19,383 nt of DNA. Origin: a virus. Made by a program: the position numbers and the translations under genes. Of this stretch, positions 1-14,951 are shown piece after piece. Position 1 is the first letter of the stretch. The number at the start of each line of letters is the position of its first letter. The notes under the pieces are model-generated. The model saw only the letters and a program-made list of their open reading frames with translations. It ran no database searches and was not told where the DNA came from. The stretch is taken from the UHGV virus genome UHGV-1344012, one strand, 5' to 3'.

Positions 1-73
1 ACAACCTCGGGTTTCGGCAGGGCGTAAAGCGTGGTGTTGCCCTCCACGCAGTTAACATGACGGGCGTTAGTGG

Positions 74-1387
74 TTAACTTACTGATTTTAATAATCCTCC
101 CGTACTGCTCTCGTGGCTATGGGGCATCAATGGGGCAAAATCTGCCAGCTTCTGATTCAGCATTGCGATCTGCTCTGCGCTGCTGTCAGCCATCCATGCA
201 CCGTAAACATTGAACACCATCTGCGCGCTCGCATGCCCCATCTGACTGGCAATAAAACTCGGGTTTGCACCAGCAGATAATGACCAGCACGCATAGGTAT
301 GTCGTGACTGGTACGCCTTTCTGTGTCTGATCCCCGCGCGCTTTAGTGCAGCTTCCCATGAGTCGCCTACTGAATCGACCCGGTAGATAAATCCGACCTG
401 CTTACTGCGTCTGACCACATGCGGGTTAAAGACGAATGTACACTCATGGTTCACCGAACGACCGTACTCACGTAACTGCACTTCAATGTGATATTGCCTG
501 CCCAGCCTTGTCATTTCAGCCTGATTTTTCAGGATACTGATTGCGGGCTGGATAAGATGCACCACTCGATCTGTACTTGCCTCGGTTTTCGGTAGAGTGA
601 ACTCACCAAGTTTCGTATAATTACGCCTGACGGTAATTGTTCCCGCCTTCAGGTCGATATCTTCCCAGGCCAGGGAGACCAGTTCCCCGTGACGCATTCC
701 TGTGTACACTGCTAATGACCACAGGTTTTTCGTCTGCTGATGCCGGCATGCATCTATCAGGCGAATAAATTCATCACGAGACAGAGGATCTGGTTCTGCC
801 CTGGCTTTTTTCAGAGGTTTAATTCCCTCGAATGGGTTCACCTCTAAGTAACCGTGATCCGCAGCAAACTGAAACATTCCGGCCATTGTCGTCATGTAAT
901 AGTTCACAGTAACAACGCTTCGCCCTTTTGCCGGGGCTTTATTTTTCGTCGGACTCTGATAACCAGTTAGCAAATCTTTCCTAAGATACAGCAATTCCTC
1001 TTTGGTTACTGCTGACACCAGGCGATTACCTCCGATCCTCGGCACCATATTCCTTGCGACAGATTCATAGCGATTGAATGCGTTCGCGCAGATTTCCATC
1101 CGTTTCAGATCCAGCCATTTTTCTTCAAGTTCTTTCACTGTAATGTCTTTTTTACTTACACCAAAAGCCTTGAGGTTAGGGGAGTCAGGAAACTGGGTTG
1201 CATAATCAAAGGTTCCTGTGCGGATGGCAAAACATACTGATGTCCGCAGTTCCCCGGCTACCTTTCTGTTCTTAGCGGTGTCAGGGACACCGAGACTTTC
1301 CCTGACACGCTTACCTTTAAAATTAAACCAGATGCGTAATGTGCCACCGTGGTTTTCGACGCCTGTTGGATATGTGACTTTATCCAT
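74..1387 (-). CDS. int: Tyrosine-type site-specific integrase (phage integrase family)
   Basis: 437-aa ORF with a C-terminal region typical of tyrosine recombinases (...SRHTYACWSL..., downstream H/Y residues) and an N-terminal arm-binding-like region. Strong RBS (GGAGGT) upstream of ATG at 1385-1387; TAA stop at 74-76. Sits next to an excisionase-like gene. Confidence 0.9.
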   Translation of the reverse strand: MDKVTYPTGVENHGGTLRIWFNFKGKRVRESLGVPDTAKNRKVAGELRTSVCFAIRTGTFDYATQFPDSPNLKAFGVSKKDITVKELEEKWLDLKRMEICANAFNRYESVARNMVPRIGGNRLVSAVTKEELLYLRKDLLTGYQSPTKNKAPAKGRSVVTVNYYMTTMAGMFQFAADHGYLEVNPFEGIKPLKKARAEPDPLSRDEFIRLIDACRHQQTKNLWSLAVYTGMRHGELVSLAWEDIDLKAGTITVRRNYTKLGEFTLPKTEASTDRVVHLIQPAISILKNQAEMTRLGRQYHIEVQLREYGRSVNHECTFVFNPHVVRRSKQVGFIYRVDSVGDSWEAALKRAGIRHRKAYQSRHTYACWSLSAGANPSFIASQMGHASAQMVFNVYGAWMADSSAEQIAMLNQKLADFAPLMPHSHESSTGGLLKSVS

Positions 1388-1445
1388 TGGTGTTACCTCC
1401 AGACGCCCAAGAGCGATACGAGCTTACCTTTTTCATGGCATCAAA

Positions 1446-1682
1446 TCACCCTGGCTGCTTGCTTTTCATTGAAGCGACCCAGGCATCTACAGCCTTTCTG
1501 TTATACATGCACTCACTGGAAGGTTTGGGATTTCCGTCAGGCGATACGTGGATATACTCCCTCCCAATCATCCAGCATTCTTTTCTGGCACGGGTGATGG
1601 TTCCGGGTTTGAGCCCGGTAACCGCGATCAGAACGCTTTCACAAACCCAATCGTTGGGAGCTAACTGGAAAATATTGCTCAT
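1446..1682 (-). CDS. xis: Excisionase-like small DNA-binding protein
   Basis: 78-aa ORF immediately upstream of int on the same strand, with GGAG RBS 8 nt before ATG at 1680-1682. Size, position and sequence character (…LTGLKPGTITRARKECWMIGREYIH…) fit lambdoid Xis-like proteins; family recalled, not searched. Confidence 0.6.
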   Translation of the reverse strand: MSNIFQLAPNDWVCESVLIAVTGLKPGTITRARKECWMIGREYIHVSPDGNPKPSSECMYNRKAVDAWVASMKSKQPG

Positions 1683-1722
1683 AGTTATTTCTCCATTATC
1701 CCGGCTGCACCCGGGGAAAATT

Positions 1723-2301
1723 TTAGTTGTTGCTGGTGGTTGGGATTAGTTTCTGCCAAATCGCTGAAACATATTTCGCCTGGTGGCGGGCATCAGCCAG
1801 TGCGTTATGTGCAACCCCATCAAATGGCATATCACGCTTAGGATCGAAACCTACAACTCTGCCTAATGTGACGATGGTTCTGACGTCGTGATCATTCCAA
1901 AATTGCCACGGGCAAACCTGGCCGGCACGCTCATATGCGCCGCGCAATATAACGTTGTCGAAAGTAGCTCCATTGCCCCAAACTTTTAAATATTTAGGGT
2001 TATCAGAATGCCGATTAATGAAATGGCTCAGTTCAGATAGGGCAGATGATATCGGCATCGCATCATCAACACAGATTGCTGATCGTGCTTCTGAGCTTTG
2101 TCTTAACCACCACAGAATAGTGTCACCGTCCGGCACCGCTCCCTGCTCCATAGCGCTTTCAAGGTTAACGGCGCTGTAAAACTCCTGACCCAGTTCACCG
2201 CTTTGCGGATCGAAGAACACGGCACCTATGGAGACGATAGGGGCATTTGGTTTTTTGCCCATGGATTCGAGGTCGATCATTAAATTGTTCACGTTATACA
2301 T
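1723..2301 (-). CDS. DnaQ-like (DEDDh) 3'-5' exonuclease
   Basis: Exonuclease motifs visible: IDLESMG (Exo I, D-x-E), later acidic motif, and H-x4-D (HNALADA) near the C-terminus. Start placed at the internal ATG 2299-2301 (MYNVNNLMIDLE...) because it has an AGGAGAA RBS and abuts the stop of the upstream gene; the track ORF extends to 2493 by overlap. Confidence 0.75.
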   Translation of the reverse strand: MYNVNNLMIDLESMGKKPNAPIVSIGAVFFDPQSGELGQEFYSAVNLESAMEQGAVPDGDTILWWLRQSSEARSAICVDDAMPISSALSELSHFINRHSDNPKYLKVWGNGATFDNVILRGAYERAGQVCPWQFWNDHDVRTIVTLGRVVGFDPKRDMPFDGVAHNALADARHQAKYVSAIWQKLIPTTSNN

Positions 2302-3076
2302 TCTCCTGCTGCGGTGCTGCTGCCTGCTCAGCTGCCATAGCTGCATCGATTTGCTCACGTAATTTGGTCGCGTGATAATCGTCATCTTCATCCGTGATGG
2401 TCTGCGACCAGAAAATGCTATGGCTTCCGTAAACCATAGGCTCACGAACATCAACGGTTTTAGATACCAGCCAGTCCATGCGGAGTACGTCATCCGGAGT
2501 TACCGGAGAGTTGCCAGCCTGGAGAATAGATTTCAGCGCTGCCCTTGGCATTGCCGACCAGGCAAGGAATACGTCTGGCCTGTCGACATCTTCTGTCGGG
2601 AGAGTGTTTTCTATTTCGTCCAGCGCATCACTTAGCTTCTGAAATGCGTCGTCTGGAACAACGTGGCACTCTTCGCCATCAACATCTTGCTGACAGCTAT
2701 CATCTGCGAGTTCGAATGCGGCCCAGCAAACATTGAGCAGCATTTCAATAACGCGACGGTGTTCTGCTGTTACGCAATTCTCCGGCACTACCTGCGCTGG
2801 CGTGGCAGTGTAGAGCGGAATTACCGCATCTCCCATTGGCTGAGACAGGCACTTAAGGTGAAGATCACCCATCTTTGCATAAGCCAGAGTTTCCTCAGCG
2901 GCATAAAGCACAGGCTCAGCATTCAGGACTTCATCAATCACCTTGACAGCATCAGCCATTGCGTAGCCGAGATTACCGCCGTCACTTTGCGCTGCTGCTT
3001 TGCTGAGTATTTCGCTTATCTGGTGCAGGCGATCGAGTGATACAGGACCGTGCGCCGGGTGGTTGTTAGTTGTCAT
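2294..3076 (-). CDS. Hypothetical acidic phage early protein
   Basis: 260-aa ORF in the tightly packed leftward operon; its stop lies 2 nt from the exonuclease start. No motif recognised by eye. Confidence 0.6.
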   Translation of the reverse strand: MTTNNHPAHGPVSLDRLHQISEILSKAAAQSDGGNLGYAMADAVKVIDEVLNAEPVLYAAEETLAYAKMGDLHLKCLSQPMGDAVIPLYTATPAQVVPENCVTAEHRRVIEMLLNVCWAAFELADDSCQQDVDGEECHVVPDDAFQKLSDALDEIENTLPTEDVDRPDVFLAWSAMPRAALKSILQAGNSPVTPDDVLRMDWLVSKTVDVREPMVYGSHSIFWSQTITDEDDDYHATKLREQIDAAMAAEQAAAPQQENV

Positions 3077-3079
3077 GGG

Positions 3080-3265
3080 TTAGTCCCTCTCCACATTGAG
3101 AATGTCATCGTAATCATATTCAGTTTCATAACCGTCAGTGCCGAACAGAGTTACGACACCATCCTCTTCCCAGAACGTCTTCACTGTGTAACGTTTGCCG
3201 TGAAAGGTGATAACTACATCGCCAGGCTCAACGTCTTCTGCTCGAATTTTCAGTTTATCGACCAT
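3080..3265 (-). CDS. Small hypothetical protein (61 aa)
   Basis: Compact acidic ORF filling the gap between flanking genes in the operon, with stop/start spacing of 1-3 nt to its neighbours. Confidence 0.5.
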   Translation of the reverse strand: MVDKLKIRAEDVEPGDVVITFHGKRYTVKTFWEEDGVVTLFGTDGYETEYDYDDILNVERD

Positions 3266-3266
3266 C

Positions 3267-3920
3267 TCATTCCCCCTTCACGCCAATGCCAGCGGCGGCA
3301 CGTTCGGCTTCACTTTGTTCCCAAAACCACTTGTGAAGCGCCATAAGCTCTTCGTCAATCGGTGCATATTTGCGGTCAAAGTAGGCCTGAGCATCTTTCT
3401 CAGATTCGTCAGGCAATTCACCAGGCCCAAACAGCGTGTTATAAATCCATGCCAGTCCGCTCTTAGCGTCGCCAGTTGCCTGCCATTCGATAATCGCAGC
3501 CTGCATGACCAGAATGTTTTTCCCGATTAATAGGTCCAGTTCTTTGAACCGGTTGCGGATGTATGCATTCTCGCTTTGTAATTTTGCGTTGCGCTTCTCT
3601 GCGGCTTCTCTTCGGTTATTTGCACTATCGTACCGTTGCATCCATGACTTAATTTCAGCTTCAAGAAGGTCTTCCAGCTCCGCATTACGCTTGTCTTTAG
3701 TTTCCAGCTCATCCAGCAGCGCCAGCACAGTGGCGGGGTTGGATGCGGCGATGAATTCTGCATCAACCTTGAGGCAGTGCTGGGCGATTGCTTTTACCCC
3801 TACCTTGACCTCGTGGCCCCGCGCGCCTTTGTGTGGATGATATGATTCCCAACGGCCCCACGAGGCTTTGTTTGCTGCATCCGCCGTTTCACGCAGCGCC
3901 TGTTTGTTGATGTTGCTCAT
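3267..3920 (-). CDS. Hypothetical coiled-coil protein, possibly ead/Ea22-like
   Basis: 217-aa ORF with a central charged, helical segment (…NAELEDLLEAEIKSWMQRYDSANNRREAAEKRNAKLQSEN…). Start overlaps the upstream stop (translational coupling). Ea22-like assignment is from memory only. Confidence 0.55.
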   Translation of the reverse strand: MSNINKQALRETADAANKASWGRWESYHPHKGARGHEVKVGVKAIAQHCLKVDAEFIAASNPATVLALLDELETKDKRNAELEDLLEAEIKSWMQRYDSANNRREAAEKRNAKLQSENAYIRNRFKELDLLIGKNILVMQAAIIEWQATGDAKSGLAWIYNTLFGPGELPDESEKDAQAYFDRKYAPIDEELMALHKWFWEQSEAERAAAGIGVKGE

Positions 3921-4675
3921 TGTGCTGCCTCCTGGCGGTCTATGCGTTCAATTTCAGCCAGAATAAGCGCGCCAGCTTTCACCAGGTCACGGCGCGGGCC
4001 TGTCGGCTTCCACCATTCGGGTGCCCACGGCCAGTCCATCGGAATGCGGTTAAACGGCTGGATGGTGTTCAGGACGTAGCATGAGGATGCCCACAACAAC
4101 TGCGATTTTCCGTATTTGTCGTCATGCTCAGACGTCCAGCCCTCAACGGCTTTCTGCCGCTGGCGCTCTGCTATCACATCTAGAATTGCAGGATTGAACG
4201 TCCGCGCCTCCAGTTCTGCTATTTGATTCTCTGCTGCGTAGAGTTTGCGCTTCAGTTCTACGTTTTCCTCAGAAAGAGATACCGCTGCCTCCCAATTAAC
4301 GATCCCCTCATGGCAGGCCTCCTGATATGCCGTCAGCACAACATCAAACAGATTGCCATCCTGTAGCAGCTTAGCCAGTTCAGGCTTCCAGGCTACGCAG
4401 TCATCATCAGGGTCCTGCATGTTGTAGACGTAAGTATCAAAGGCACCCATCAAGCGCCCGAATCCACCTTTGTCGTCTACCAGCACTTGCCAGGCACGGA
4501 GAAGAAACAGTTTTTGATTACGATCTAAATCCGTCCGGGATAGTTCATCGGCGATAATGCTGATTTCACTACCGTGCCAGCGAGCGTCATTCCGTTGTGC
4601 CGCATGAAACAACTTCCAGAAATACTCGGTTTCTTCTTGGTCCGGGCGGCATTGCTTCAGTGTATGGACTGTCAT
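3917..4675 (-). CDS. Hypothetical protein with a C-terminal DUF550-like segment (tentative)
   Basis: 252-aa ORF; C-terminal W-rich segment (…EGWTSEHDDKYGKSQLLW…WPWAPEWWKPTGPRRDL…) resembles phage DUF550-type domains as recalled. ATGA overlap with the upstream gene. Confidence 0.55.
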   Translation of the reverse strand: MTVHTLKQCRPDQEETEYFWKLFHAAQRNDARWHGSEISIIADELSRTDLDRNQKLFLLRAWQVLVDDKGGFGRLMGAFDTYVYNMQDPDDDCVAWKPELAKLLQDGNLFDVVLTAYQEACHEGIVNWEAAVSLSEENVELKRKLYAAENQIAELEARTFNPAILDVIAERQRQKAVEGWTSEHDDKYGKSQLLWASSCYVLNTIQPFNRIPMDWPWAPEWWKPTGPRRDLVKAGALILAEIERIDRQEAAQ

Positions 4676-4998
4676 GCTGCACCGCCTTCAACGTTACGTA
4701 ACCAGATGCATACCGCGCCATCTTCGGTGTTGTGAATTGAACCGACAAACCAACCTTCACCGGCTGGCGATTCTGGCTGCCAGGCTGAAATATCGTAACC
4801 ATCAACTTCAGGATCGATGTCTTCTTCATCCCGGTAAACTACCGTCCATTCGAGGCCGTTTTTATCCAGCCAGGCGTTGAACTCATCAGGTGAGATAAAT
4901 TCACGACCATCGCAAAATTGCTCATAGACGGGGTGAGTCCANNNNNNNNNNTAGCCGTATTGGTCGCGTTCTACTGGTAATGCCGTAAATTTGCTCAT
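4672..4998 (-). CDS. Hypothetical protein (interrupted by a 10-nt N run)
   Basis: 108-aa ORF in operon context with overlapping stop/start to its neighbours; N run at 4942-4951 lies inside it, so the sequence and frame there are unverified. Confidence 0.45.
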   Translation of the reverse strand: MSKFTALPVERDQYGXXXXWTHPVYEQFCDGREFISPDEFNAWLDKNGLEWTVVYRDEEDIDPEVDGYDISAWQPESPAGEGWFVGSIHNTEDGAVCIWLRNVEGGAA

Positions 4999-5240
4999 TG
5001 GGCTGCTCCTTTGCGGACGTTTCGCAGAAGCTGGTTAAATATCAGCGTTAAGTTATTGCTGCATCCAAACGGCAGATCATTGACGCGGTATGTCGGTATC
5101 CCACCGCGTGCGCCAGACTTAACAATTCTCCCTGTTGCATAAAGCTGAGATAGTGCGCTGGCTACGGCTGGCGTCTTTTTACCCATCGCCCTTGCGATGG
5201 TGGCGTTCGGGTGGCCCTGGAGATATTCAAATACGGTCAT
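4995..5240 (-). CDS. Small hypothetical protein, possible winged-helix DNA-binding
   Basis: 81-aa ORF; start overlaps the stop of the upstream small ORF (ATGA-type overlap). Basic helical character suggests nucleic-acid binding, which is inference. Confidence 0.5.
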   Translation of the reverse strand: MTVFEYLQGHPNATIARAMGKKTPAVASALSQLYATGRIVKSGARGGIPTYRVNDLPFGCSNNLTLIFNQLLRNVRKGAAQ

Positions 5241-5404
5241 TGCGTTTTACCTTTACGTTCCTGTTCCAGTTGCGCCAATGATTCGGTTAATGCTGCGAAC
5301 GTAGCTTCAAGCCTGGTAGCGACTTCGCGCATAAGCGATGCATGCTTTGGTGGCAATTCAGCCACGGAGGCAAACGCCTCCGCCACGAGTTCTTTTACCT
5401 TCAT
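5237..5404 (-). CDS. Small helical ORF (55 aa), not in the ORF track
   Basis: Hand translation of the minus strand gives MKVKELVAEAFASVAELPPKHASLMREVATRLEATFAALTESLAQLEQERKGKTQ. Its ATG overlaps the stop of the HD gene and its TGA overlaps the ATG of the downstream gene, filling an otherwise unexplained 160-nt gap in a tightly coupled operon. Confidence 0.35.
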   Translation of the reverse strand: MKVKELVAEAFASVAELPPKHASLMREVATRLEATFAALTESLAQLEQERKGKTQ

Positions 5405-5940
5405 GCGGCGCATTGACGCTGCTCCATCAACTCATTAAAGCGATTTATGAACATGCCGTATGACTGGCCTGGACGAACTGGATTGATGATGAATAGGTCC
5501 GTCGGGACAACGCCATCGAGGCATGGCCACACGGAACCTTCGTCAATCTCAAAATCGCGGCGTTCGCTGGCGAGCATCACCAGATCGGCATATTTCACTG
5601 TTGGGTGTTGCTCCGTCGGTAGGCCAAATTTCTGGCGAATAGCAGCGTCTACGCGAGCTTCGATCACCTGGTAATCCGGTAACAGGCGCTTAAGCGGTGA
5701 GGGAATATCTTGCAGGTAGGCTTCGGCGGCATCATGAAGCAGTGCTTCTAAGGCAAACTCCTGCGGAACGAGATGGCTGGTTAAAACGCTATGCTGGCCG
5801 ACGCTGTAAAACTCAGGAAGATGCCCAGCAAAACGGCAGATATGAGACAGCGCAGTAGCAATATCCTCGATGACGATATCGTCCTGTTGGATATCGAGGT
5901 AATTAAAGTGTTTGCCGGATAATGTCTGAATGTAGCTCAT
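5401..5940 (-). CDS. HD-domain phosphohydrolase (YfbR/YfdR-like 5'-deoxynucleotidase family)
   Basis: Contains an HD motif (…LLHDAAEAY…) and upstream His residues typical of HD metal-dependent phosphohydrolases. Start set at ATG 5938-5940 (MSYIQTLSGKHF…) with GGAG RBS; the track ORF begins further upstream. Confidence 0.8.
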   Translation of the reverse strand: MSYIQTLSGKHFNYLDIQQDDIVIEDIATALSHICRFAGHLPEFYSVGQHSVLTSHLVPQEFALEALLHDAAEAYLQDIPSPLKRLLPDYQVIEARVDAAIRQKFGLPTEQHPTVKYADLVMLASERRDFEIDEGSVWPCLDGVVPTDLFIINPVRPGQSYGMFINRFNELMEQRQCAA

Positions 5941-6068
5941 GGTTTTCTCCATATTGGCGCGCTGCACCGCGCAGATTTTGGTTGCACGAATCCCTCGCCG
6001 GATGGCGATAATTAATGGAATTACGCTTCAATAAATCCCCGCGGCGCCGGGGATTTAATGCAGAGCAA

Positions 6069-6896
6069 TTAGGCTTTAAAGTTACCGATGAAAGTTTCCA
6101 CTGATTCACCGTCGAACTTGCTGATCAGTAAATCGCGGAATTCGTTGGCGATTGCTTCTTCCTGGGCTTCAAGTTGGACGATGCGCAGAACAAAGCAGGG
6201 TTCATCGCTGGTCAGCAGGCTGTTACGCAAGCTAAAGCGGCGTTCGCCCAGACCTTCATACGGCACACATTTGAATTCGAACGCTACCGGCATTACGTCT
6301 TTGCTGCTTGCTTCGACGCTTTGCATGAGTGATTTTTTACCAGCGAAATCACCAGTTTCATGATCCTGCTGGGTTGCTTGTTGGATAGTGATACGACGCA
6401 CGGCCTGAGCCGCCTGAGAAATCTCCATCGTCTTACCATCAGCGTCAAACGCCAGCAGGTAATCACTCCAGTCTTCCAGCCATTCAGCGATTTGCTTTTG
6501 TTTCAGACGCTGACCATCGATCTGTAGTAGCGCGCGAAACGGGGCGGTTTTCTTCAGAGTGATTGAAGCAACGTTATCGGCGTGACCGGGGTTATCCAGG
6601 GTGCCGATGTTGAACACTGAACGGGCGGTCATGTTGTCAGCGTCAATGAAGCAACGAGCTGGCTCGCTGGCGCTGGCATAACCTTTAGAATAACGTGCGA
6701 AGTCGTCAATACTGGTTGTGGTCATTGCGCCACGAAAGCGGAAACGTTCCAGAGAAAAGCGCTCAAGGCTTTCAACGCCAGTACCCTCTGGCAGTAATGC
6801 GGTCGGGCAAGCCAGGCCATGAATATCATTCAGGTGATAACCGGAAAGGACCAGGTCTTTGACCTGCTTGAAGGTGCCGCTGTCTAACTGAGACAT
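6069..6896 (-). CDS. DUF2303 family protein (YfdQ-like prophage protein)
   Basis: 275-aa ORF whose size, position next to the HD gene and sequence character match the YfdQ/DUF2303 family of CPS-53-like prophages as recalled; not verified by search. Confidence 0.65.
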   Translation of the reverse strand: MSQLDSGTFKQVKDLVLSGYHLNDIHGLACPTALLPEGTGVESLERFSLERFRFRGAMTTTSIDDFARYSKGYASASEPARCFIDADNMTARSVFNIGTLDNPGHADNVASITLKKTAPFRALLQIDGQRLKQKQIAEWLEDWSDYLLAFDADGKTMEISQAAQAVRRITIQQATQQDHETGDFAGKKSLMQSVEASSKDVMPVAFEFKCVPYEGLGERRFSLRNSLLTSDEPCFVLRIVQLEAQEEAIANEFRDLLISKFDGESVETFIGNFKA

Positions 6897-6952
6897 AAAA
6901 ATTCCTTATTAACTGATGATCAAAGTGGTATCAGTGAGTTTGTTGTTGCGGA

Positions 6953-7324
6953 TCACTGAGCCGCTTTAAGCTTTCCGTCCACCGCGCCGGTGATCCCGAA
7001 CAGTTGCCCCTGATCCTCCTGGAGGATGGTTAGCTTCCCGCCTTTGTTAACCCACATAGGGGTTTCGGTTGTGTCCTCTTCGGAGGCTTTACCGCGCGGG
7101 GTTGGGGTGCTGTAGTTCAGCTTGTGCTTGATCTTGACGCGCTTCTCTTCAACGGAATTACCCATACGCTCAAAATCAAAGGTGAGGACTACTTTGCCTT
7201 TGTTGCCGTTGTTCAGAACGCCAAGCGCGGTGGTGTTAAGTGCTGCCGCGATTTTGTTCATGAACACACCGGCATCCAGCTCGCCCAAAAAGTCGGGCAC
7301 TACGGTCATGCGGTCATTACTCAT
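6953..7324 (-). CDS. Hypothetical protein, first gene of the leftward early operon
   Basis: 123-aa ORF starting at ATG 7322-7324 with GAGGG RBS. The track ORF extends to 7603 only because a 10-nt N run (7347-7356) masks the upstream frame; that upstream part looks non-coding. Confidence 0.55.
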   Translation of the reverse strand: MSNDRMTVVPDFLGELDAGVFMNKIAAALNTTALGVLNNGNKGKVVLTFDFERMGNSVEEKRVKIKHKLNYSTPTPRGKASEEDTTETPMWVNKGGKLTILQEDQGQLFGITGAVDGKLKAAQ

Positions 7325-7486
7325 GGTTTTACCCTCGTTATGGCGGNNNNNNNNNNCTGCCACCGCCGAACTTTCTCCATACACAACAGAGAAGGGCACC
7401 TGCATTTGTCGGCGACTGCAATCGCTATCCTCTTGCCCGGGTGGATTGGGGAATGAGCCCGTCGCCCGGTGATGCCCTTGTCTCTT

Positions 7487-7518
7487 GTGTAAAAAAGGTG
7501 CCCACCGATGTGATGGGC
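7487..7518 (-). terminator. Candidate intrinsic terminator in the pL leader (tL-like)
   Basis: On the minus strand: GCCCAUC-ACAUC-GGUGGGC hairpin (7 bp incl. one G-U), then ACC and UUUUUU. The 3-nt spacer before the U-tract weakens the call. Confidence 0.35.
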
Positions 7519-7878
7519 AAAGACTACACACAGCAATGATGTTGTTGTGGCGGTGGTGCCTCCACCTGCCGGACCGGCCAGAACCGGCGACGCTACACCA
7601 CAAGAAACGTATTCATTTCAAAAGTTGAAATAAAAACTTGTTGGCCTCGTCACGTGCGCAGAGCCGCATTACCACAACGGTGAGAGCACTGTTTACCTGC
7701 TTTACCGCGTCGCGTCTCACGCAGTCCGATAATCAGCAATGCTCTCGCCTGTTGTGCCCTTAAAAAGCTGGCTGTCACCCTCAAGGGGAAAGAGAGCAGC
7801 CAGAACAGGGAACACGTCTTATTGCTTTGGCCTGCTTTTAACCACATCAGGCGCGGTGGTTTGGTGTCGACAGAAAAA

Positions 7879-7945
7879 AATCTAACTTAACTTAGTTTTC
7901 TGGTCAAGTGAAAACATCAAACTAAACTTAGCTTGATGCTTAGAG
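7879..7945 (-). promoter_or_regulatory. Candidate pL promoter with OL operator cluster
   Basis: Minus-strand -35 TTGACC (complement of 7902-7907), 17-bp spacer, -10 TAGATT (complement of 7879-7884). Near-palindromes with CTAAG/CTTAG half-sites overlap it (ctaacttaacttag at 7882-7895; ctaaacttag at 7922-7931). Confidence 0.45.
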
Positions 7946-7961
7946 GAAGAGTGGGAAGGGA

Positions 7962-8588
7962 TTAGAGTTCGTACTGAACGCCTTTAACAACGCCAATAAT
8001 GAGGCAGTTACCATTGATCGGGATGTTGGGGTAGCGAGGATTTAGTGGCACTAAAAATTTTTGTGGGCCATCAATGACAAGTTTTTTAACAGTCGCTTCA
8101 TTAGTGCCATCAAGACGCGCAACCACAATCTTGCCATGAAGGGGTTCGGCATCTGGATCAACAATAACGGTTGCCCCTTCAGGGATTGTTGGGAGGCCAT
8201 TTGGATTGGTCATTGAATCCCCTTTGACCTCTAAAGCGAACGAGTTATCCCCAATGCGAAGTGATGTTTCAACCCATTTATCGACATCACTGAACAAATC
8301 AGCGGCTTTACATTCCGTGAACTGCCCAGCTTGAACCCATGAAATCACCGGGACACGCCTCATTTTAGTTATGAGGGTGCCTTCAAATTCAGTGCCGTAA
8401 AGAATGTAATCTATTGATGTGTTAAAGAATTTCGCCAGCTTAACCAGCGATTCACCGTTTGGGATATTCACATCCTTTTCCCAATAACCCACCGCTACGT
8501 CACTAACCCCGCAGAACTTACCCAGTTCTTTTTGAGAGGTTCTTGTAACCCTACGTAGGGCTTTAATGCGCTGACCAACCGTTTCCAT
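7962..8588 (-). CDS. cI: CI-type prophage repressor (P22 C2-like; N-terminal HTH, C-terminal S24 LexA-like peptidase)
   Basis: 208-aa ORF with an N-terminal HTH (…QKELGKFCGVSDVAVGYWEK…) and C-terminal S24 catalytic dyad context (…EVKGDSMTNP… Ser; …EATVKKLV… Lys). Divergent from cro across an operator-rich intergenic region. Confidence 0.9.
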   Translation of the reverse strand: METVGQRIKALRRVTRTSQKELGKFCGVSDVAVGYWEKDVNIPNGESLVKLAKFFNTSIDYILYGTEFEGTLITKMRRVPVISWVQAGQFTECKAADLFSDVDKWVETSLRIGDNSFALEVKGDSMTNPNGLPTIPEGATVIVDPDAEPLHGKIVVARLDGTNEATVKKLVIDGPQKFLVPLNPRYPNIPINGNCLIIGVVKGVQYEL

Positions 8589-8610
8589 GAAAGCACCAAG
8601 TTTAAAAAAG

Positions 8611-8681
8611 ACTAAGTAATCTTAGTTTTTATTGACCAAAGTTAGATTGGTTATTAATATCTAACCAAACTTAGCTAAGGA
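8611..8681 (+). promoter_or_regulatory. OR operator cluster with candidate pR promoter and cro RBS
   Basis: Perfect palindrome ACTAAGTAATCTTAGT (8611-8626); -35 TTGACC (8632-8637), 17-bp spacer, -10 TAATAT (8655-8660); inverted repeat GTTAGAT…ATCTAAC (8641-8665); palindrome CTTAGCTAAG (8670-8679); AGGAGG RBS before cro. Confidence 0.55.
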
Positions 8682-8687
8682 GGCTTC

Positions 8688-8879
8688 ATGACAACCGACG
8701 AGATTGAACAACATTTCGGCAGCACTGAAAAAGTTGCCGAATTTTTTGGCATCACCAGTGAGGCCGTTTACCAGTGGCGTAACCGCCCCGCTGCTGAAGC
8801 TGCGTATCGAACTGCTGGTGAACTGGAATTTAACCCAGAACGTTATGGCAAGAATACATCGCCAAGCGATCAGAAATAA
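8688..8879 (+). CDS. cro: Cro-like repressor (P22 Cro family)
   Basis: 63-aa ORF immediately right of OR with AGGAGG RBS. Sequence (…IEQHFGSTEKVAEFFGITSEAVYQW…) resembles P22 Cro as recalled. Confidence 0.8.
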   Translation: MTTDEIEQHFGSTEKVAEFFGITSEAVYQWRNRPAAEAAYRTAGELEFNPERYGKNTSPSDQK

Positions 8880-8901
8880 CCACAGAAGGGAGGACCTAGC
8901 C

Positions 8902-9450
8902 GTGGGTATAGAACCTGAATGGAAAGTAGATAAGCAGCCAGCCTGGCTGGTGGCCGCAATCAAAAAAACGATCACCGAGCTGCCTGGCGGATATTCAGAA
9001 GCTGCTGAGTGGTTGGGTGTGACCGAGAACGCGCTGTTTAACCGGCTGCGTACCGATGGCGATCAGATCTTCCCGCTCGGTTGGGCGATGGTGCTTCAAC
9101 GTGCTGGTGGTTCAAACCACATAGCGAACGCTATTGCACGTCACTCGAACGGTGTTTTCGTGCCATTGGCTGACGTTGAAGAAATAGAGAACGGTGACAT
9201 CAACCAGCGTCTTATGGAGTCAGTGGAGTGGATCGGCAGGCATTCGCAATACGTTCGCAAAGCTACCGCTGACGGCGTTATTGATGCTCAGGAACGCGCC
9301 CAGATTGAAGAGAACAGCTATCAGGTGATGGCTAAGTGGCAGGAACATTTGACGCTGCTTTTCCGTGTGTTTTGTGCGCCGGAAAAAGGTGACGCCCGCG
9401 AGTGTGCAGCTCCGGGCGTCGTGGCAGACAAATCTTGTATGGAGAAGTAA
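8902..9450 (+). CDS. CII-like regulatory protein (Phage_CP76-like, tentative)
   Basis: 182-aa ORF starting at GTG 8902-8904, 8 nt after a GGGAGG RBS and just after the cro stop. The track's ATG at 8704 would overlap cro in another frame. CII-like assignment rests on position and recalled family resemblance. Confidence 0.5.
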   Translation: MGIEPEWKVDKQPAWLVAAIKKTITELPGGYSEAAEWLGVTENALFNRLRTDGDQIFPLGWAMVLQRAGGSNHIANAIARHSNGVFVPLADVEEIENGDINQRLMESVEWIGRHSQYVRKATADGVIDAQERAQIEENSYQVMAKWQEHLTLLFRVFCAPEKGDARECAAPGVVADKSCMEK

Positions 9451-9622
9451 TCCGCATGACCAGTTTAACGGCTTTTAACCGTTTGCCGCAACTCAGGATG
9501 ATCCCGGTACCGGGCGCTCCGTTGTTTCGGTATGAACGCAGAATAGCAAACCGCTGGGTGCCATGTAACCACAGTCGGGCGGTCGCAATTGTGGGGGTTT
9601 ACTACAGGAAGGCGAAACGCTT

Positions 9623-9802
9623 ATGCGCGAAGTTAACCGAAGGTTCAAAGACCACAGAGGGATCCCCGTTCGGGTTATCAGGTGGGAGCCAGAGACTCAA
9701 CGAGTTATCTACCTGCGGGATGGATATGACCACGAATGTTTCAGCCCGCTCGAACAATTCAAGCGCAAGTTTACAGAGTTAAAGGACGACCATGAGCACT
9801 AA
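9623..9802 (+). CDS. Small hypothetical protein (59 aa), translationally coupled to the replication gene
   Basis: Hand translation: MREVNRRFKDHRGIPVRVIRWEPETQRVIYLRDGYDHECFSPLEQFKRKFTELKDDHEH. Its TAA overlaps the ATG of the O-like gene (ATGAGCACTAA). It competes with a track ORF (9402-9782) in another frame, so this is uncertain. Confidence 0.35.
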   Translation: MREVNRRFKDHRGIPVRVIRWEPETQRVIYLRDGYDHECFSPLEQFKRKFTELKDDHEH

Positions 9803-10646
9803 ATTAACGGGTTACGTTTGGGATGCTTGTGCCGCTTCTGGCATGAAGCTATCCAGCGTTGCCATCATGGCGCGTCTGGCAGACTTCAGCAGTGATGAAG
9901 GGGTTAGCTGGCCTTCCATCGCTACCATCGCGCGCCAGATTGGTGCTGGTGAGAGCACGGTTCGTACAGCCATATCTCAGCTGGAAAAAGATGGTTGGTT
10001 AACCCGCCAGCAGCGCCGTAAAGGCAACCGAAATGCATCGAACGTTTACCAGCTCAATGTTGCTAAATTGCAGGCTGCTGCCTTTTCTCACCTGTCAGAT
10101 TCTGACGCATCAAAATCTGATGCCTCAAAAACCGACGCGTCAAAATCTGAGGCATCAAAAAACGATGAAAAAGGCGGTTTTCACCCGTCAGAATCTGGGG
10201 GGGATCCGTCAGTAAATACAACTACTGATCCATCAGTTAAAAAACCTTCTTGTCCGGTTGCGCCGCAACCAGACCCTGAAGTGATGATCACCGATAACGC
10301 CATCCTGGTTCTGAATCATCTGAACCTGGTTAGTGGCTCACGATACCAAAAATCAAAAACTTCTCTGGAAAACATCCGTGCTCGTCTGCGTGAAGGTTAC
10401 ACCGTTAGCGACTTACAGCTGGTGATCGACCTTAAGCATGAGCACTGGAACGGCAATGACGTGCAGTACCAGTACATGCGTCCTGAAACGCTCTTCGGTC
10501 CGAAAAAATTTGAAGGTTATCTGCAAAGCGGGATCCGCTGGGACAAGAAGGGGCGGCCACCGCGTGACAGCTGGGGTGAAAAGAAACATGACCCGATGAA
10601 GTTCGGTCCGGTTGATAGCAAGATTCCAGAGGGGTTCAGAGGATGA
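9792..10646 (+). CDS. Replication initiation protein (O-like; N-terminal winged-HTH, low-complexity linker, conserved phage C-terminal domain)
   Basis: 284-aa ORF with an N-terminal HTH-like region and a conserved C-terminus (…LNHLNLVSGSRYQKSKTSLENIRARLREGYT…). The central DASKS-type repeats are encoded by tandem 15-bp DNA repeats that look like origin iterons, as in lambda O. Confidence 0.65.
   Translation: MSTKLTGYVWDACAASGMKLSSVAIMARLADFSSDEGVSWPSIATIARQIGAGESTVRTAISQLEKDGWLTRQQRRKGNRNASNVYQLNVAKLQAAAFSHLSDSDASKSDASKTDASKSEASKNDEKGGFHPSESGGDPSVNTTTDPSVKKPSCPVAPQPDPEVMITDNAILVLNHLNLVSGSRYQKSKTSLENIRARLREGYTVSDLQLVIDLKHEHWNGNDVQYQYMRPETLFGPKKFEGYLQSGIRWDKKGRPPRDSWGEKKHDPMKFGPVDSKIPEGFRG
10101..10160. 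repeat. Four tandem 15-bp direct repeats (candidate origin iterons) inside the O-like gene
   Basis: tctgacgcatcaaaa / tctgatgcctcaaaa / accgacgcgtcaaaa / tctgaggcatcaaaa, each with a short internal dyad (e.g. GACGCGTC), followed by an A-rich stretch (aaaaacgatgaaaaagg). Confidence 0.6.
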
Positions 10647-11196
10647 TGGAAAATAAATACTGCCGTGCACTGGCTGAACTCCGTTCAAAACCAGCACACG
10701 AGTTGAAAGAGGTCGGTGATCAATGGCGCACTCCGGATCTGTTGTTTTGGGGGATCAATGCGATGTTCGGCCCTCTGGTGTTGGACCTTTTTGCCGACGA
10801 CAGCAACGCGAAGTGCCCAGCATGGTACACGGCTGAAGATAATGCCCTGACGCAGGATTGGTCAGAGCGGCTGGCAGAACTCGGTGGTGCCGGGTTTGGC
10901 AACCCGCCTTACAGCCGCTCTCAGTACCACGACAAGCAGGCCGTTACCGGAATGACCCACATCATTAACCACGCTATGGCCATGCGAGAAAAGGGTGGTC
11001 GGTACGTTTTTCTCATTAAGTCTGCGACGAGTGAAACGTGGTGGCCGGTAGAGGCAGATCACGTCACATTCATCCGTGGCCGAATTGGTTTCGATCTTCC
11101 TACATGGTTCGTGCCGAAAGACGAAAAGCAGCAGCCCACCAGCGCATTTTTTGCTGGCGCTATCGTGGTCTTCGACAAAACATGGTGGGGTGAGCG
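10643..11196 (+). CDS. Phage Dam-type DNA N6-adenine methyltransferase (3' end lost in an N run)
   Basis: Motifs typical of the phage N6-adenine methyltransferase family: …QWRTPDLLF…, …NAKCPAWYTAED…, and catalytic NPPY (…GFGNPPYSRS…). ATG overlaps the O-like stop. A 46-nt N run (11197-11242) truncates the visible ORF, so the true end is unknown. Confidence 0.8.
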
Positions 11197-11253
11197 NNNN
11201 NNNNNNNNNNNNNNNNNNNNNNNNNNNNNNNNNNNNNNNNNNCCCAATTTGCC

Positions 11254-11961
11254 GTGGGAAGAACGCAAACTGATGCGGCGCCGGAGCTGGACGCTGAGGT
11301 AGTGCCGGAGAAATCAGAGGCAGAACTGCCATTAACCCAAAAAGCCATTCTGGAAACCAGCGGTGTAGAGGCTTGGGCCTGTGTTGTCGCGGCGGTCGGC
11401 AAGAAAGACGAGTACACCTTCAGCGCGTCAAAGTTTGGTCATACCTGGGCTGCCGACTCTCTGGAAAACCCTGAATTTACCAATGTTTCACCGCTGACGA
11501 TCGACAGAGCGAAAAAGCTGATCAGCGAGAGCATCCTGGTGGGTGTTAATGCATGGCTGGAAACATTGCCCTTTGATAGCGATGACGTGAAACAAGACAT
11601 GTCAGAGCGGTTACGCACGGTTGCCGTTGAGTCTGCGAAAGAATACGGCATTAACCACAGTGAATTCATCGCGACCATGGAAAGCCTGGATAAAGCCAAA
11701 TGGTCAAATATTCGGGGGATCCGCGCCCATGTCCGTGAGACGCAGGAATCAAAGGACAAGGCGTTAAACGAATCGCGCGTTTGGCCTCTTGAGGTTGGAC
11801 TGGTGTTTAACCAGATTGAAGGGGCTGACGCTCTACCTGTTTCGCAGCAGAACAAGCTGAAAGCCAACATCAATCAACTCTGGCTGGAACGAACGGCCAC
11901 CAGCGAAATCATTACTGCCGCTTCTGAACTTGTTCGCAATATGCGGGGAGAGGCCGCGTGA
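11254..11961 (+). CDS. Hypothetical protein (true start unresolved because of the upstream N run)
   Basis: 235-aa ORF from the first in-frame GTG after the gap; the real start may lie within the gap. Its stop overlaps the rusA start. No motif recognised. Confidence 0.5.
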   Translation: MGRTQTDAAPELDAEVVPEKSEAELPLTQKAILETSGVEAWACVVAAVGKKDEYTFSASKFGHTWAADSLENPEFTNVSPLTIDRAKKLISESILVGVNAWLETLPFDSDDVKQDMSERLRTVAVESAKEYGINHSEFIATMESLDKAKWSNIRGIRAHVRETQESKDKALNESRVWPLEVGLVFNQIEGADALPVSQQNKLKANINQLWLERTATSEIITAASELVRNMRGEAA

Positions 11962-12344
11962 AACTGATCCTGCCTTTTCCTCCGAGCGTGAACACTTACT
12001 GGCGCGCCCCTAATAAGGGGCCGCTGGCCGGTCGTCACCTCATTAGCGCTGATGGTCGTAAATACCAGAGCGCTGCCTGCGTGGCGATCATTGAGCAATT
12101 ACGACGTCTCCCGAAGCCATCGACTGAACTGGCAGCGGTTGAAATCACTCTGTACCCGCCGGATGCGCGCCGCCGGGATATCGATAATTACAACAAAGCC
12201 CTGTTTGACGCGCTGACGCATGCGGGTGTCTGGGAAGACGACAGCCAGATTAAGCGCATGCTGGTGGAATGGGGACCCGTAGTGCCGAAAGGTCGGGTAG
12301 AGATAACGATCAGCAGATATGAACCGGCGGGTGCAGCCGCCTGA
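11958..12344 (+). CDS. rusA: RusA-family Holliday junction resolvase
   Basis: 128-aa ORF with RusA-like conserved residues (…RRRDIDNYNKALFDALTHAGVWEDDSQI…) and typical lambdoid nin-region position. Confidence 0.85.
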   Translation: MKLILPFPPSVNTYWRAPNKGPLAGRHLISADGRKYQSAACVAIIEQLRRLPKPSTELAAVEITLYPPDARRRDIDNYNKALFDALTHAGVWEDDSQIKRMLVEWGPVVPKGRVEITISRYEPAGAAA

Positions 12345-12357
12345 TATGGAGAAAAGT

Positions 12358-13041
12358 ATGAGCCAATTAGCAACAACAGCATTAACCATGTCCAGCAGCG
12401 ATATTGCTGAGCTGGTGGAATCACGACATGACCATGTTAAACGGTCCATTGAACGCCTGGCAGAGCGCGGTGTTATTGAACTCCCCCCAATGGGGGAAGT
12501 TAAAAATCACCTCAATCAGTCGGTATCGGTTTATCTGATAGGGAAGCGGGACAGTTATATCGTTGTCGCGCAGCTGTCGCCGGAGTTTACCGCGCGTCTG
12601 GTTGATCGCTGGCAGGAGCTTGAGCAGGCACAGCAGCAGACGATTCCTCAATCATTCTCTGAAGCCCTACGTCTTGCAGCTGACCTTGCAGAACAAAAAC
12701 AACAGTTGACTAACGAACTGGCTGCCGCTGCGCCGAAGGTAGCGTTTGTTGATCGGTACTGTACAGCCAGTGGGTCAATGTCATTCCGCCAGGTGGCAAA
12801 ACTGCTTAAGGCCAAAGAGCCAGATCTGCGGTTATTCCTCCTTGAGAACGACATCATGTATCGCCTTGGCGGAACGATGACCCCACGGCATCAGCATATT
12901 GATGCGGGCCGTTTTGAAATGAAAACCGGCACATCCGTAACCTCAAATCATGCATTCAGCCAGGCACGTTTCACGGCGAAAGGCGTGCGCTGGATTGGTG
13001 GACTGTGGGCAGAACACATTGCCAGGGGGCAGGTCGCGTGA
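12358..13041 (+). CDS. Antirepressor-like protein (Rha-like N-terminus, KilA-C/ANT-like C-terminus)
   Basis: Start placed at ATG 12358 (MSQLATT…) with GGAG RBS just after the rusA stop. N-terminal region resembles phage Rha regulatory proteins and the C-terminal region (…AFVDRYCTASGSMSFRQVAKLL…) resembles KilA-C/ANT domains, as recalled. Confidence 0.6.
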   Translation: MSQLATTALTMSSSDIAELVESRHDHVKRSIERLAERGVIELPPMGEVKNHLNQSVSVYLIGKRDSYIVVAQLSPEFTARLVDRWQELEQAQQQTIPQSFSEALRLAADLAEQKQQLTNELAAAAPKVAFVDRYCTASGSMSFRQVAKLLKAKEPDLRLFLLENDIMYRLGGTMTPRHQHIDAGRFEMKTGTSVTSNHAFSQARFTAKGVRWIGGLWAEHIARGQVA

Positions 13042-14033
13042 GAGCTCTGCTTACCCCCGAGATCGCCCATCGTATGGGGATTGTGCTGTTCCGTCCCGGT
13101 ACGGAACTGATGCACCTCTTCATGCGTGGTCGCGTTCTGCTCGAGCCTGAACCAGAAGAAATGGCGTCATTCAGTACCGGGGCTGTTCCGGCAGCCATTC
13201 AGCCGCTAGCTGATGATCCGGTAATGCGTCAGGTCTTCGAGAATGAGAGGGTTATTCAGCGTGCCGGTGGGCTTCCTTCCCTTGAGCAATGGTTGAGTAA
13301 TCGGTTTGAATGCCAGTGGCCACATTCAACGTGGCACGACAAGAACTTCACAACAATGCGGCACCCACCAGGAAGTATTCGCCTGTGCTGGCATTGCGAT
13401 CACACTTTGTCGGGGCAGCATACCGAACAGCTTGCAGGTATAGCGGCCGGAAACCTGGTATCCTGGATTCTGGAAGTCATTCGGCGTGATTCTGGTTTTC
13501 CCGAGTCGCATATCCTGACGCTTCCTGAACTGTGCTGGTGGATGGTCAGAAACGACCTGGCTGATGTTATTCCGGAAAGCGTTGCGCACAAAGGGTTGCG
13601 CCTTCCGGATGAGAAGATCCGTTCTGTCATGAGGGAAAGCGACATAGTGCCTTCCTCGTCAGCAACCAGACTCGTGCAGGAGAAGGCGAAGAAGATCCTC
13701 ACGCTCTCTGTTGATCCGGAGTCGCCAGAGTCTTTTATGCTCAGGCCAAAACGTCGCCGCTGGATAAATGAGACGTACACCCGCTGGGTTAAAACACAAC
13801 CCTGTGAGTGTTGCCGACGGCCAGCAGATGATCCGCACCATATCGTAGGGCACGGTATGGGTGGTACAGCAACAAAAGCCCATGACCTCTTCGTGATCCC
13901 TCTGTGCAGAGAGTGCCACGACGAGTTACACGCCGATGTACCAGCATTCGAGCAGAAGCATGGTACGCAGCTTGAGCTGCTACTGCGTTTTATTGATCGA
14001 GCACTGGCGATCGGCGTAATTGCGACAGCTTAA
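13038..14033 (+). CDS. DUF968 family protein (YdfU-like), Cys/His-rich C-terminus
   Basis: 331-aa ORF starting at GTG 13038 (GTGA overlap with the upstream stop; AGGGGG RBS). C-terminal Cys/His cluster (…CECCRRPADDPHHIVGHG…CRECHDELH…) and position just upstream of Q match YdfU-like proteins as recalled. Confidence 0.6.
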   Translation: MRALLTPEIAHRMGIVLFRPGTELMHLFMRGRVLLEPEPEEMASFSTGAVPAAIQPLADDPVMRQVFENERVIQRAGGLPSLEQWLSNRFECQWPHSTWHDKNFTTMRHPPGSIRLCWHCDHTLSGQHTEQLAGIAAGNLVSWILEVIRRDSGFPESHILTLPELCWWMVRNDLADVIPESVAHKGLRLPDEKIRSVMRESDIVPSSSATRLVQEKAKKILTLSVDPESPESFMLRPKRRRWINETYTRWVKTQPCECCRRPADDPHHIVGHGMGGTATKAHDLFVIPLCRECHDELHADVPAFEQKHGTQLELLLRFIDRALAIGVIATA

Positions 14034-14049
14034 GAAGTATGGAGACCGT

Positions 14050-14880
14050 ATGAATCTGGACAATGTTTTAAAGTTTTTTGCGCCTAAAGGCATGCACATC
14101 TCAGATACCAGCAGAGCGACAGCAAGTGAGCAACTTACTGTGACTGATGTAATGGCTGCACTGGGGATGACTCAGGCTGATGCAGGCATCGGGCTGGCAA
14201 TGTTTCTAGGTAAAGCTGGTATCAGCAGCAAGGACAGGGAGATGTCAATTGCCTGGCTAACGGAGTACGCGAAAGAGCATGCGCCCATGGCTATTCGTAA
14301 AGCATCAGGGAAAAAGTTTCCCCTCTGCATGCGTATCCTTGCCCGGTTTGCCTATAACGATTATTCCTCATCAGCAGCTGATTGTGTGGCATGCCCAAAA
14401 TGTAGTGGTAAAGGGTTGCTTACAACCACTAAAACCGTGACTAAAAGCCATTACACAATGCGATTGCCACAATGGGCAAAAGACCTGAGACAGTCACCAT
14501 CTGACTTTGAGGTAAAGCGAGAAGTAACTGACTCCGAGCAAAGTTTATGTTCGCGATGCCATGGTACCGGAAAGTTAAGTAAGCGATGCCAGTGTGGCGG
14601 AACTGGCAAGACGGTTGACCGTAAAGCGACAGAACTGCAGGGCGTACCAGTTTACAAAGAATGTAAGCGCTGCGAAGGGCGGGGATACAGCAGGCCAAAA
14701 TCATCGGTTGCCTATCGAGGTGTTTTTTCTGAGTTGCCGAGTCTGCCTGACCGAACGTGGCGTTATAGCTGGAAACCATTCTATGAAAGCCTGGTGACCA
14801 AATGTTTCCAGGAGGAGAGTTATTCAAGCTCTCAACTGAATCGGGTGACTAAAAGTGAAGATGTGATAAATATCGCGTAA
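14050..14880 (+). CDS. Late-gene antiterminator Q-like protein (phage 82 Q / QuuQ-type, Zn-finger-like), copy 1
   Basis: Start set at ATG 14050 (MNLDNVLKFF…) with GGAG RBS, by alignment to the paralog at 17269. Cys-rich motifs (CPKCSGKG; CSRCHGTGK…CQCGGTGK; CKRCEGRG). Followed immediately by a consensus-like promoter and intrinsic terminator, the classic Q-pR'-tR' arrangement. Confidence 0.7.
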   Translation: MNLDNVLKFFAPKGMHISDTSRATASEQLTVTDVMAALGMTQADAGIGLAMFLGKAGISSKDREMSIAWLTEYAKEHAPMAIRKASGKKFPLCMRILARFAYNDYSSSAADCVACPKCSGKGLLTTTKTVTKSHYTMRLPQWAKDLRQSPSDFEVKREVTDSEQSLCSRCHGTGKLSKRCQCGGTGKTVDRKATELQGVPVYKECKRCEGRGYSRPKSSVAYRGVFSELPSLPDRTWRYSWKPFYESLVTKCFQEESYSSSQLNRVTKSEDVINIA

Positions 14881-14923
14881 TTTAGCGTCATGATGTTTGC
14901 AATGTTGCCGTATTTGTGTATAT

Positions 14924-14951
14924 TTGACATCAATGATGGGCTTTGTATAAC
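14924..14951 (+). promoter_or_regulatory. Candidate late promoter pR' (Q utilisation region)
   Basis: -35 TTGACA (14924-14929), 16-bp spacer, -10 TATAAC (14946-14951), located 44 nt after the Q1 stop. The predicted start site falls in the N run at 14958-14974. Confidence 0.5.

Follow-up and report, generated by a model that had tools for sequence, protein, structure and literature searches.

The yfdP-yfdQ-yfdR cluster in the leftward early operon of a lambdoid prophage, and the structured RNA between yfdQ and the HD phosphohydrolase gene

The cryptic prophage CPS-53 (KpLE1) of Escherichia coli K-12 carries the genes yfdP, yfdQ, and yfdR, followed by yfdS and yfdT. In multicopy, yfdQ and yfdR together with either yfdS or yfdT suppress over-initiation and inhibit normal initiation of replication, both in vivo and in vitro, and yfdQ is required for the effect (Noguchi and Katayama, PMC4776307). 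YfdR binds domain I of DnaA in a Phe46-dependent manner and competes with DiaA and DnaB (PMC4776307). Published work also assigns YfdR a weak 5'-deoxynucleoside monophosphatase (5'-dNMPase) activity; the same paper, citing Zimmerman 2008, describes it as structurally homologous to the dNMPase YfbR, though far weaker in its affinities for nucleotides and elusive in function. Later reviews repeat the replication-initiation view of yfdQ, yfdR, yfdS, and yfdT. More recently, the yfdP-yfdQ-yfdR trio was described as fairly common in lambdoid early-left operons, of unknown function, and unlikely to be a hidden recombination module (2025 Genome Research, PMC12315714). Here we analyze a 19,383-nucleotide (nt) stretch of the virus genome UHGV-1344012 (the window, which spans only 19 kb of a prophage and to which all coordinates refer), in which a gene of the DUF2303/YfdQ family is followed by a gene for a phosphohydrolase of the HD superfamily (the HD gene). 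Judged by sequence comparison, this neighborhood represents, in this prophage, the yfdP-yfdQ-yfdR cluster that has already been described for lambda-like phages.

The window and CPS-53 share the three genes in order and orientation. The YfdP and YfdQ proteins are 59% and 57% identical to their K-12 counterparts over the full length, and the HD protein is 63% identical to YfdR over 178 of 178 residues (E = 7e-90). A structured spacer between yfdQ and yfdR is found in CPS-53 as well. The two loci differ in that CPS-53 is a decayed remnant, whereas the window looks like an intact lambdoid early region, and in that yfdS and yfdT follow in CPS-53 but not in the window. The trio likewise heads the early-left operon and adjoins the repressor gene in ST64B (sb37-sb36-sb35), phiNP (046-048), LLS (gp39-38-37), and Eeyore, at DNA identities of about 75 to 81%; the other downstream early genes of these phages are different, as expected in mosaic lambdoid phages. 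A preliminary description of the window had placed the HD and DUF2303 genes side by side, in the same orientation, in an early operon, and we can confirm each of these points. Both open reading frames (ORFs) lie on the minus strand, 128 nt apart, downstream of an S24/LexA-type repressor gene and within a leftward operon that ends at xis and int. Since the gene arrangement was known and the K-12 homolog has been studied, the novelty of the locus is low.

Which gene travels with which was followed in three sets of loci: 80 close viral loci, 43 further viral loci, and a set of 80, mostly from Pseudomonas and with each species represented by one genome, in which YfdQ is about 35 to 48% identical to that of the window. 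The close viral loci kept the order YfdP-YfdQ-HD throughout, with YfdP counted in 79 of 80 and HD following yfdQ in 80 of 80. YfdP and YfdQ also occurred together in all 43 of the further viral loci, and HD was the next gene in 33 of these. At the Pseudomonas-type loci, YfdP was directly upstream of YfdQ in 78 of 80, while an HD homolog was found downstream in 13 of 80, often not adjacent, and no other downstream gene was consistently conserved among those 80 loci. The linkage to YfdP across all three sets, against the variable presence of HD, indicates that the conserved unit is yfdP-yfdQ. The HD gene is a frequent neighbor that is specific to the enterobacterial lineage. The DUF2303 family as a whole comprises about 1,400 clusters at 50% identity and is nearly always accompanied by yfdP. 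The proposal that the HD and DUF2303 genes form a pair is weakened by these counts, and further by the location of the HD gene behind a terminator-like hairpin and its occurrence after rdgC in sibling prophages.

Where HD is missing, the following gene starts straight after the spacer, and its translation, read by eye, appears to open with an N terminus related to the 58-amino-acid ORF that follows HD in the window. Sibling E. coli prophages carry an identical HD gene (WP_001515610) behind rdgC, without yfdP and yfdQ. In one sibling, L003 (NZ_CP061758), rdgC at 4450-5367 takes the slot of yfdP plus yfdQ (window 6069-7324), directly upstream of HD. Within the 80 close viral loci, identity to the window protein ranges from 58 to 100% for HD and from 81 to 100% for YfdQ; HD alleles thus vary while YfdQ is near constant, which argues that HD and yfdQ recombine independently. 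The HD alleles behind the near-constant yfdQ fall into classes of about 58 to 62%, 67 to 73%, 84 to 87%, and 96 to 100% identity to the window copy, which points to repeated exchange at the conserved spacer.

The preliminary description had called the region between the two genes structured, and folding and comparative analysis bear this out. The 128-nt spacer is conserved in K-12, ST64B, phiNP, and Eeyore and contains three hairpins. Hairpin 1, at the yfdQ stop codon, has a predicted stability of -23.9 kcal/mol (z = -4.2), and none of 200 shuffled sequences was as stable. Its core is G+C rich, with a CCCCG/CGGGG stem followed by AUUUAUU and an A tract upstream, so that the core is flanked by A and U tracts. 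This hairpin is absent from the list given by a consensus terminator scan, which we attribute to the U tract also pairing with the A tract in the extended stem. Among 82 distinct spacers, hairpin 1 has a stem that comes in many sequence versions, all of which remain complementary. A covariance model detected the full-length element in 75 enterobacterial loci, six of which have no HD gene, and gave a score of 97 bits to the yfdQ-yfdR spacer of K-12 CPS-53. The same model found no element among the searched Pseudomonas-type loci or in the rdgC sibling. In the model-fitted alignment, 92.1% of cells formed pairs versus 84.2% in shuffles, with 0 of 500 shuffles reaching the observed value, a comparison biased toward structure since the alignment was fitted to it. 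Both sides had changed in 13 of 28 pairs, and slid controls paired at no more than 46%.

The G-U wobbles fit only when the gene strand is read, as judged by eye, and the structure therefore belongs to the mRNA. Because the element is kept even where HD is missing, it belongs to the 3' side of yfdQ. Most likely, it ends or punctuates the yfdPQ transcript, and a conserved terminator-like hairpin at this position agrees with the K-12 operon "yfdPQ," which is listed separately from yfdR (PMC9181523). The rdgC sibling becomes homologous to the window again from hairpin 3, the GGTGCAGC hairpin, so that the spacer also marks a mosaic junction. Other identities for the spacer were tried and rejected. 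As for a known RNA family, a search returned only a subthreshold match to RsmY on the opposite strand (18 versus 57 bits) and no Rfam family. A CsrA decoy was dropped, since its GGA loop is not conserved and the wobbles fit the gene strand only. An internal promoter for HD was likewise discarded, as a consensus scan of the spacer showed no sigma-70-like site.

The ORF list gives the HD gene as 5401-5967 with a GTG start at 5967. The start is likely the ATG at 5940, which is preceded by GGAGAAAACC and is where RefSeq begins an identical gene of 540 nt in the genomes of E. coli siblings, giving a protein of 179 amino acids. Curated profiles recognize this protein poorly. The Pfam YfbR-like profile gave a subthreshold 20.6 to 20.7 bits (cutoff, 25.9), HD_3, the only other Pfam match, gave 12.7 (cutoff, 22.5), and the NCBIfam YfbR equivalog NF003009 was not reached (16.7 versus 122 bits). 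The assignment to the HD superfamily instead follows from the match to YfdR and to the solved HD protein Atu1052 (PDB 2gz4; E = 2.8e-13, residues 5 to 171). The protein also matches phrog_318, named "dNMP phosphatase," with an E value of 3.7e-98. Atu1052 is the closest solved structure by sequence, but it is a structural-genomics entry deposited as a hypothetical protein and there is no function to transfer from it. YfbR, the E. coli HD-domain 5'-deoxynucleotidase, shares the superfamily and an HD...E...D core (36% identity over 39 residues), but the N- and C-terminal regions diverge and the window protein is not a YfbR ortholog. The gene class that had been proposed holds, the enzyme being an HD phosphohydrolase of the YfdR/YfbR type, as does the assignment of its neighbor to DUF2303/YfdQ.

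The metal-binding motif H50...H69-D70...D119 is present, with H50 as the upstream histidine. The columns of H69-D70, E73, D78, and D119 are invariant when the protein is aligned with YfdR, YfbR, and one copy each from ST64B and Pseudomonas. Among 98 distinct homologs drawn from 120 loci, H40, H50, H69, D70, D78, and D119 never vary, and E73 is conserved too. Inactivating substitutions of the metal ligands, which would have spoken against an enzyme, were thus looked for and not found, and the enzyme hypothesis survives. The invariance of the ligands makes it most likely that the HD protein works as a metal-dependent phosphohydrolase.

The reading that we prefer, and to which we give an even chance, divides the locus into two units, yfdP-yfdQ and an HD-led block, with the HD protein as a YfdR-type phosphohydrolase that possibly contacts DnaA and damps initiation at oriC. 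It builds on the homology, synteny, intact active site, and RNA structure found here, adopts from published work on the K-12 homolog the dNMPase activity, the binding to DnaA, and the need for yfdQ, and supposes that the properties of YfdR carry over to a 63%-identical HD protein and matter during lytic growth. The first unit would comprise two obligately linked proteins, whose genes are presumably the first in the leftward early operon to be translated and expressed, and would end in the conserved long stem-loop, acting either as an intrinsic terminator or as an RNA-processing or stabilizing hairpin. The second unit would start at the HD gene, which leads a chain of early genes that overlap and are probably coupled in translation; transcripts reading through hairpin 1 would reach this unit. 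Its first product would most likely be an active YfdR-type phosphohydrolase that depends on metal, a 5'-deoxynucleotidase of low affinity. Its homology to YfdR suggests that it may also bind the Phe46 surface of host DnaA domain I and compete with DiaA and DnaB. Upon prophage induction, the cluster would then damp initiation at the oriC of the host, at the same time as the phage makes use of the host's replication proteins. The replication gene of the window is of the DnaD-like/Phg_2220_C type, and no phage helicase was seen in the window.

Several points weigh against this reading. In K-12, yfdQ plus yfdR alone gave no phenotype, deletion had no replication phenotype, and the authors cannot exclude an overexpression artifact (PMC4776307). 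Homologs of yfdS and yfdT were not found in the window by a search in which YfdR served as a positive control. The HD family has homologs in 281 phage records, among them phages of Bacillus, Caulobacter, Vibrio, and Pseudomonas, a spread that makes a conserved enzymatic role more general than contact with E. coli DnaA. Since HD is optional beside yfdPQ and is also found behind rdgC, a joint mechanism of YfdQ and HD is not required by the genomics. The spread of the family over unrelated phages and hosts, the optional presence of HD beside yfdPQ and its occurrence beside rdgC, and the artifact caution, together with the invariant active site and the independent recombination of HD alleles and yfdQ, also favor a plain enzyme of nucleotide metabolism. 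The HD protein would then be a dNMP or nucleoside monophosphate (NMP) phosphatase or a pool sanitizer that adjusts precursors for phage DNA synthesis, the binding of YfdR to DnaA would be an overexpression artifact, and DUF2303 would be functionally unrelated to HD. We think this unlikely, as the affinities of YfdR for nucleotides have been described as far below those of YfbR, and its function as elusive (PMC4776307), and a temperate phage that leaves the DNA of its host undegraded would have no obvious need to dephosphorylate dNMPs. Of the rivals to our preferred reading, we rank the metabolic nucleotidase first, followed by Dmp-type precursor depletion, an RdgC-like role of yfdPQ, and degradation of second messengers.

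A role in counter-defense had been suggested for the HD protein, through either nucleotide pools or second messengers. Direct support for such a role was lacking: YfdQ, YfdP, and the HD protein matched no PADLOC defense model, and the HD protein is not similar to T5 Dmp, the single dNMPase with a demonstrated anti-defense role. A precedent for precursor depletion does exist in this early dNMP 5'-phosphatase of phage T5, which blocks Kongming by degrading dAMP and requires its catalytic residue to do so; Dmps are mainly found in phages with a dNMP kinase, the Kongming trigger (bioRxiv 10.1101/2024.12.20.629578). By analogy, an early HD dNMPase might lower dAMP or other dNMPs and so block a nucleotide-derived immune signal, and the HD gene is early and its product probably active. 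The two proteins resemble each other as early phage enzymes with a reported conversion of dNMPs to deoxynucleosides, an activity reported for the YfdR type as well. They have no sequence similarity, however, and a relationship, at which the PHROG name hints, was rejected (best BLASTP E = 0.88); that name describes an activity, not descent from Dmp. An alignment of T5 Dmp shows a DLDGT motif, by which we take it to be a HAD-type enzyme. The phage that encodes Dmp is moreover lytic, degrades host DNA, and has a dNMP kinase, and no such kinase was found among the ORFs of the window, which covers 19 kb of the prophage. No experiment ties any YfdR-type protein to defense, and the affinities reported for YfdR are weak. 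We therefore regard precursor depletion as quite improbable.

Degradation by the HD protein of the cyclic (oligo)nucleotides that serve as second messengers in CBASS, Thoeris, or Pycsar would draw on the same early position and probable activity. Some enzymes of the HD superfamily are phosphodiesterases, the sole general fact in favor of this possibility. The best family matches are of the monoesterase type (YfbR-like and phrog "dNMP phosphatase"), the other Pfam match is just the subthreshold, generic HD_3, and the libraries searched held no homology to known anti-signaling enzymes. None of our results supports this activity, which we consider extremely unlikely. The experimental literature on the homologous cluster points instead to a weak dNMPase and to DnaA binding with inhibition of initiation.

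The DUF2303 protein matches PF10065 with 221.2 bits (cutoff, 26.6; E = 1.9e-65), residues 31 to 273 aligning with positions 28 to 269 of the 269-position profile, and phrog_210 with an E value of 1e-103. The residues conserved in at least 82% of 137 diverse family members, R51, R55, and G56 (RxRFRG), P103-G104-H105, E141-D142-W143, and G271, are all present in the window protein. A solved family member is available as PDB 9o7m ("YfdQ Protein"), which aligns with window residues 34 to 273 (E = 1.5e-39) but is distant, at no more than 48% identity to any DUF2303 sequence compared. The entry contains 36 chains of its YfdQ sequence, and we found no publication behind it. The predicted folds of YfdQ and of YfdP, the latter predicted with the use of database homologs, suggested no solved relatives apart from PDB 9o7m, which was itself not among the fold-search matches.

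The replacement of yfdPQ by rdgC raises the question of whether the two are interchangeable. RdgC, a recombination-associated DNA-binding protein, occupies exactly the yfdPQ slot upstream of an identical HD gene in the sibling prophages. The window has 13 Chi sites (GCTGGTGG) versus 0.66 expected, 10 of them on the plus strand, and no Red, Erf, RecT, or Gam-type gene was seen among Pfam and PHROG matches across positions 1 to 19383. In these respects it matches the published "LLS functional type," lambdoid phages that are rich in Chi and lack a Rec module (PMC12315714). A weak sensitivity of a yfdQ deletion to methyl methanesulfonate (MMS) is cited in PMC4776307. On these grounds yfdP-yfdQ could be a recombination or RecA-modulating module, interchangeable with RdgC, that fills the recombination gap of such a phage. 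YfdQ shows neither sequence similarity nor, by its predicted fold, structural similarity to RdgC, and the trio has been called unlikely to be a hidden recombination module (PMC12315714); we hold the idea to be very improbable. A different role for the two proteins is as an early system of their own, for host takeover or counter-defense, wired in enterobacterial phages, through the conserved and previously undescribed three-hairpin RNA, to an accessory HD nucleotidase that would supply or remove the nucleotide substrate of yfdPQ. Such a system would take in the linkage of yfdP and yfdQ, their range from Enterobacteria to Pseudomonas and Xanthomonas prophages, and their constant position at the head of a leftward early operon. 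This joint reading strikes us as distinctly doubtful.

The gene content marks the window as the part of a lambdoid E. coli prophage that holds the immunity, early, and lysis genes (Table 1). On the minus strand, in order of transcription, lie the repressor gene, a leader of about 640 nt, the 123-amino-acid gene, the DUF2303 gene, the spacer, the HD gene, and a run of overlapping small genes that begins with the 58-amino-acid ORF. The overlaps in this run are 13, 4, 4, 4, and 4 nt, and the run leads to an Ea22-like gene, a DEDDh exonuclease gene, xis, and int. The plus strand carries P22-type cro and cII, the DnaD_N/Phg_2220_C replication gene, methyltransferase genes, RusA, Ant, DUF968, Q, holin, and endolysin. 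A promoter-like site on the plus strand at 8632-8660 fits a divergent PL/PR-type arrangement with the leftward promoter candidate.

Table 1. Features of the yfdP-yfdQ-HD region and Chi sites in the 19,383-nt window
Feature	Position	Strand	Evidence or remark
LexA/S24-type repressor gene	7962-8588	-	Peptidase_S24 and HTH_3 matches
PL-like sigma-70 promoter candidate, TTGACC-17-TAGATT	7879-7907	-	Consensus scan only; between repressor gene and leftward operon
Terminator-like hairpin, 8-bp stem then CCTTTTTTAC (T-run)	7499-7519	-	Consensus scan; untranslated leader upstream of yfdP
yfdP homolog, 123 amino acids	6953-7324	-	Obligate upstream partner of DUF2303 gene
DUF2303/YfdQ-family gene, 275 amino acids	6069-6896	-	PF10065, phrog_210
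Structured RNA element, yfdQ-HD spacer, 128 nt	5941-6068	-	Folding, covariance
Hairpin 1, long terminator-like stem-loop	core 6033-6056; extended stem 6021-6068	-	Starts at yfdQ stop codon
Hairpin 2	5995-6008	-	Followed by GGGAUU
Hairpin 3, conserved loop GUGCAG, variable covarying stem	5957-5972	-	Just upstream of HD ribosome-binding site
HD-superfamily phosphohydrolase gene, YfdR type, 179 amino acids	5401-5940	-	YfdR identity, phrog_318, PDB 2gz4
58-amino-acid ORF	5237-5413	-	Overlaps HD stop by 13 nt; ORF list and spacing; phrog_12248, E = 2e-32
Chi sites	1732, 8946, 9103, 11136, 11897, 12260, 12411, 13534, 15669, 15848, 16457, 16568, 17520	both	Window scan

The leader (7325-7961, minus strand) runs from the PL-like promoter candidate to yfdP and contains no convincing ORF; its terminator-like hairpin suggests antitermination or an RNA element acting before yfdP. 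One of five masked runs of N in the window, a 10-base run at 7347-7356, falls inside this leader. The others are at 4942-4951, 11197-11242, 14958-14974, and 17393-17435, and the runs give stretches of X in several translations, such as a spurious 216-amino-acid extension of the yfdP ORF. Elsewhere on the minus strand, the C-terminal half (residues 104 to 204) of the Ead/Ea22-like protein (3267-3920) matches the PADLOC model "DpdH" (E = 1.8e-36), which may mean that the two share a domain or that the defense model has captured a prophage gene. Two Q-like antiterminator matches were seen on the plus strand: 14020-14880 matches Pfam Antiterm, and 17487-18101, situated after the lysis genes, matches phrog_127 "Q-like." A gene for tRNA-Met (CAU) at 19286-19362 on the plus strand, also downstream of the lysis genes and near the end of the window, comes after a reverse-oriented ORF of 316 amino acids (18210-19160; phrog_7003).

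What still lends this locus interest is the function of yfdP-yfdQ, a very widespread pair, together with the conserved RNA of the spacer and the alternation of yfdPQ with rdgC. In temperate phages of enterobacteria and pseudomonads, the yfdPQ module is the first to be switched on at entry into lytic growth. The spacer RNA and the exchange of yfdPQ for rdgC offer concrete handles for experiments. If the HD protein acts on nucleotide pools against defense, it would represent a second, nonhomologous route to the effect of T5 Dmp. Restraint of host DnaA by the YfdR-type enzyme, if real, would give the phage a tool for taking over replication.

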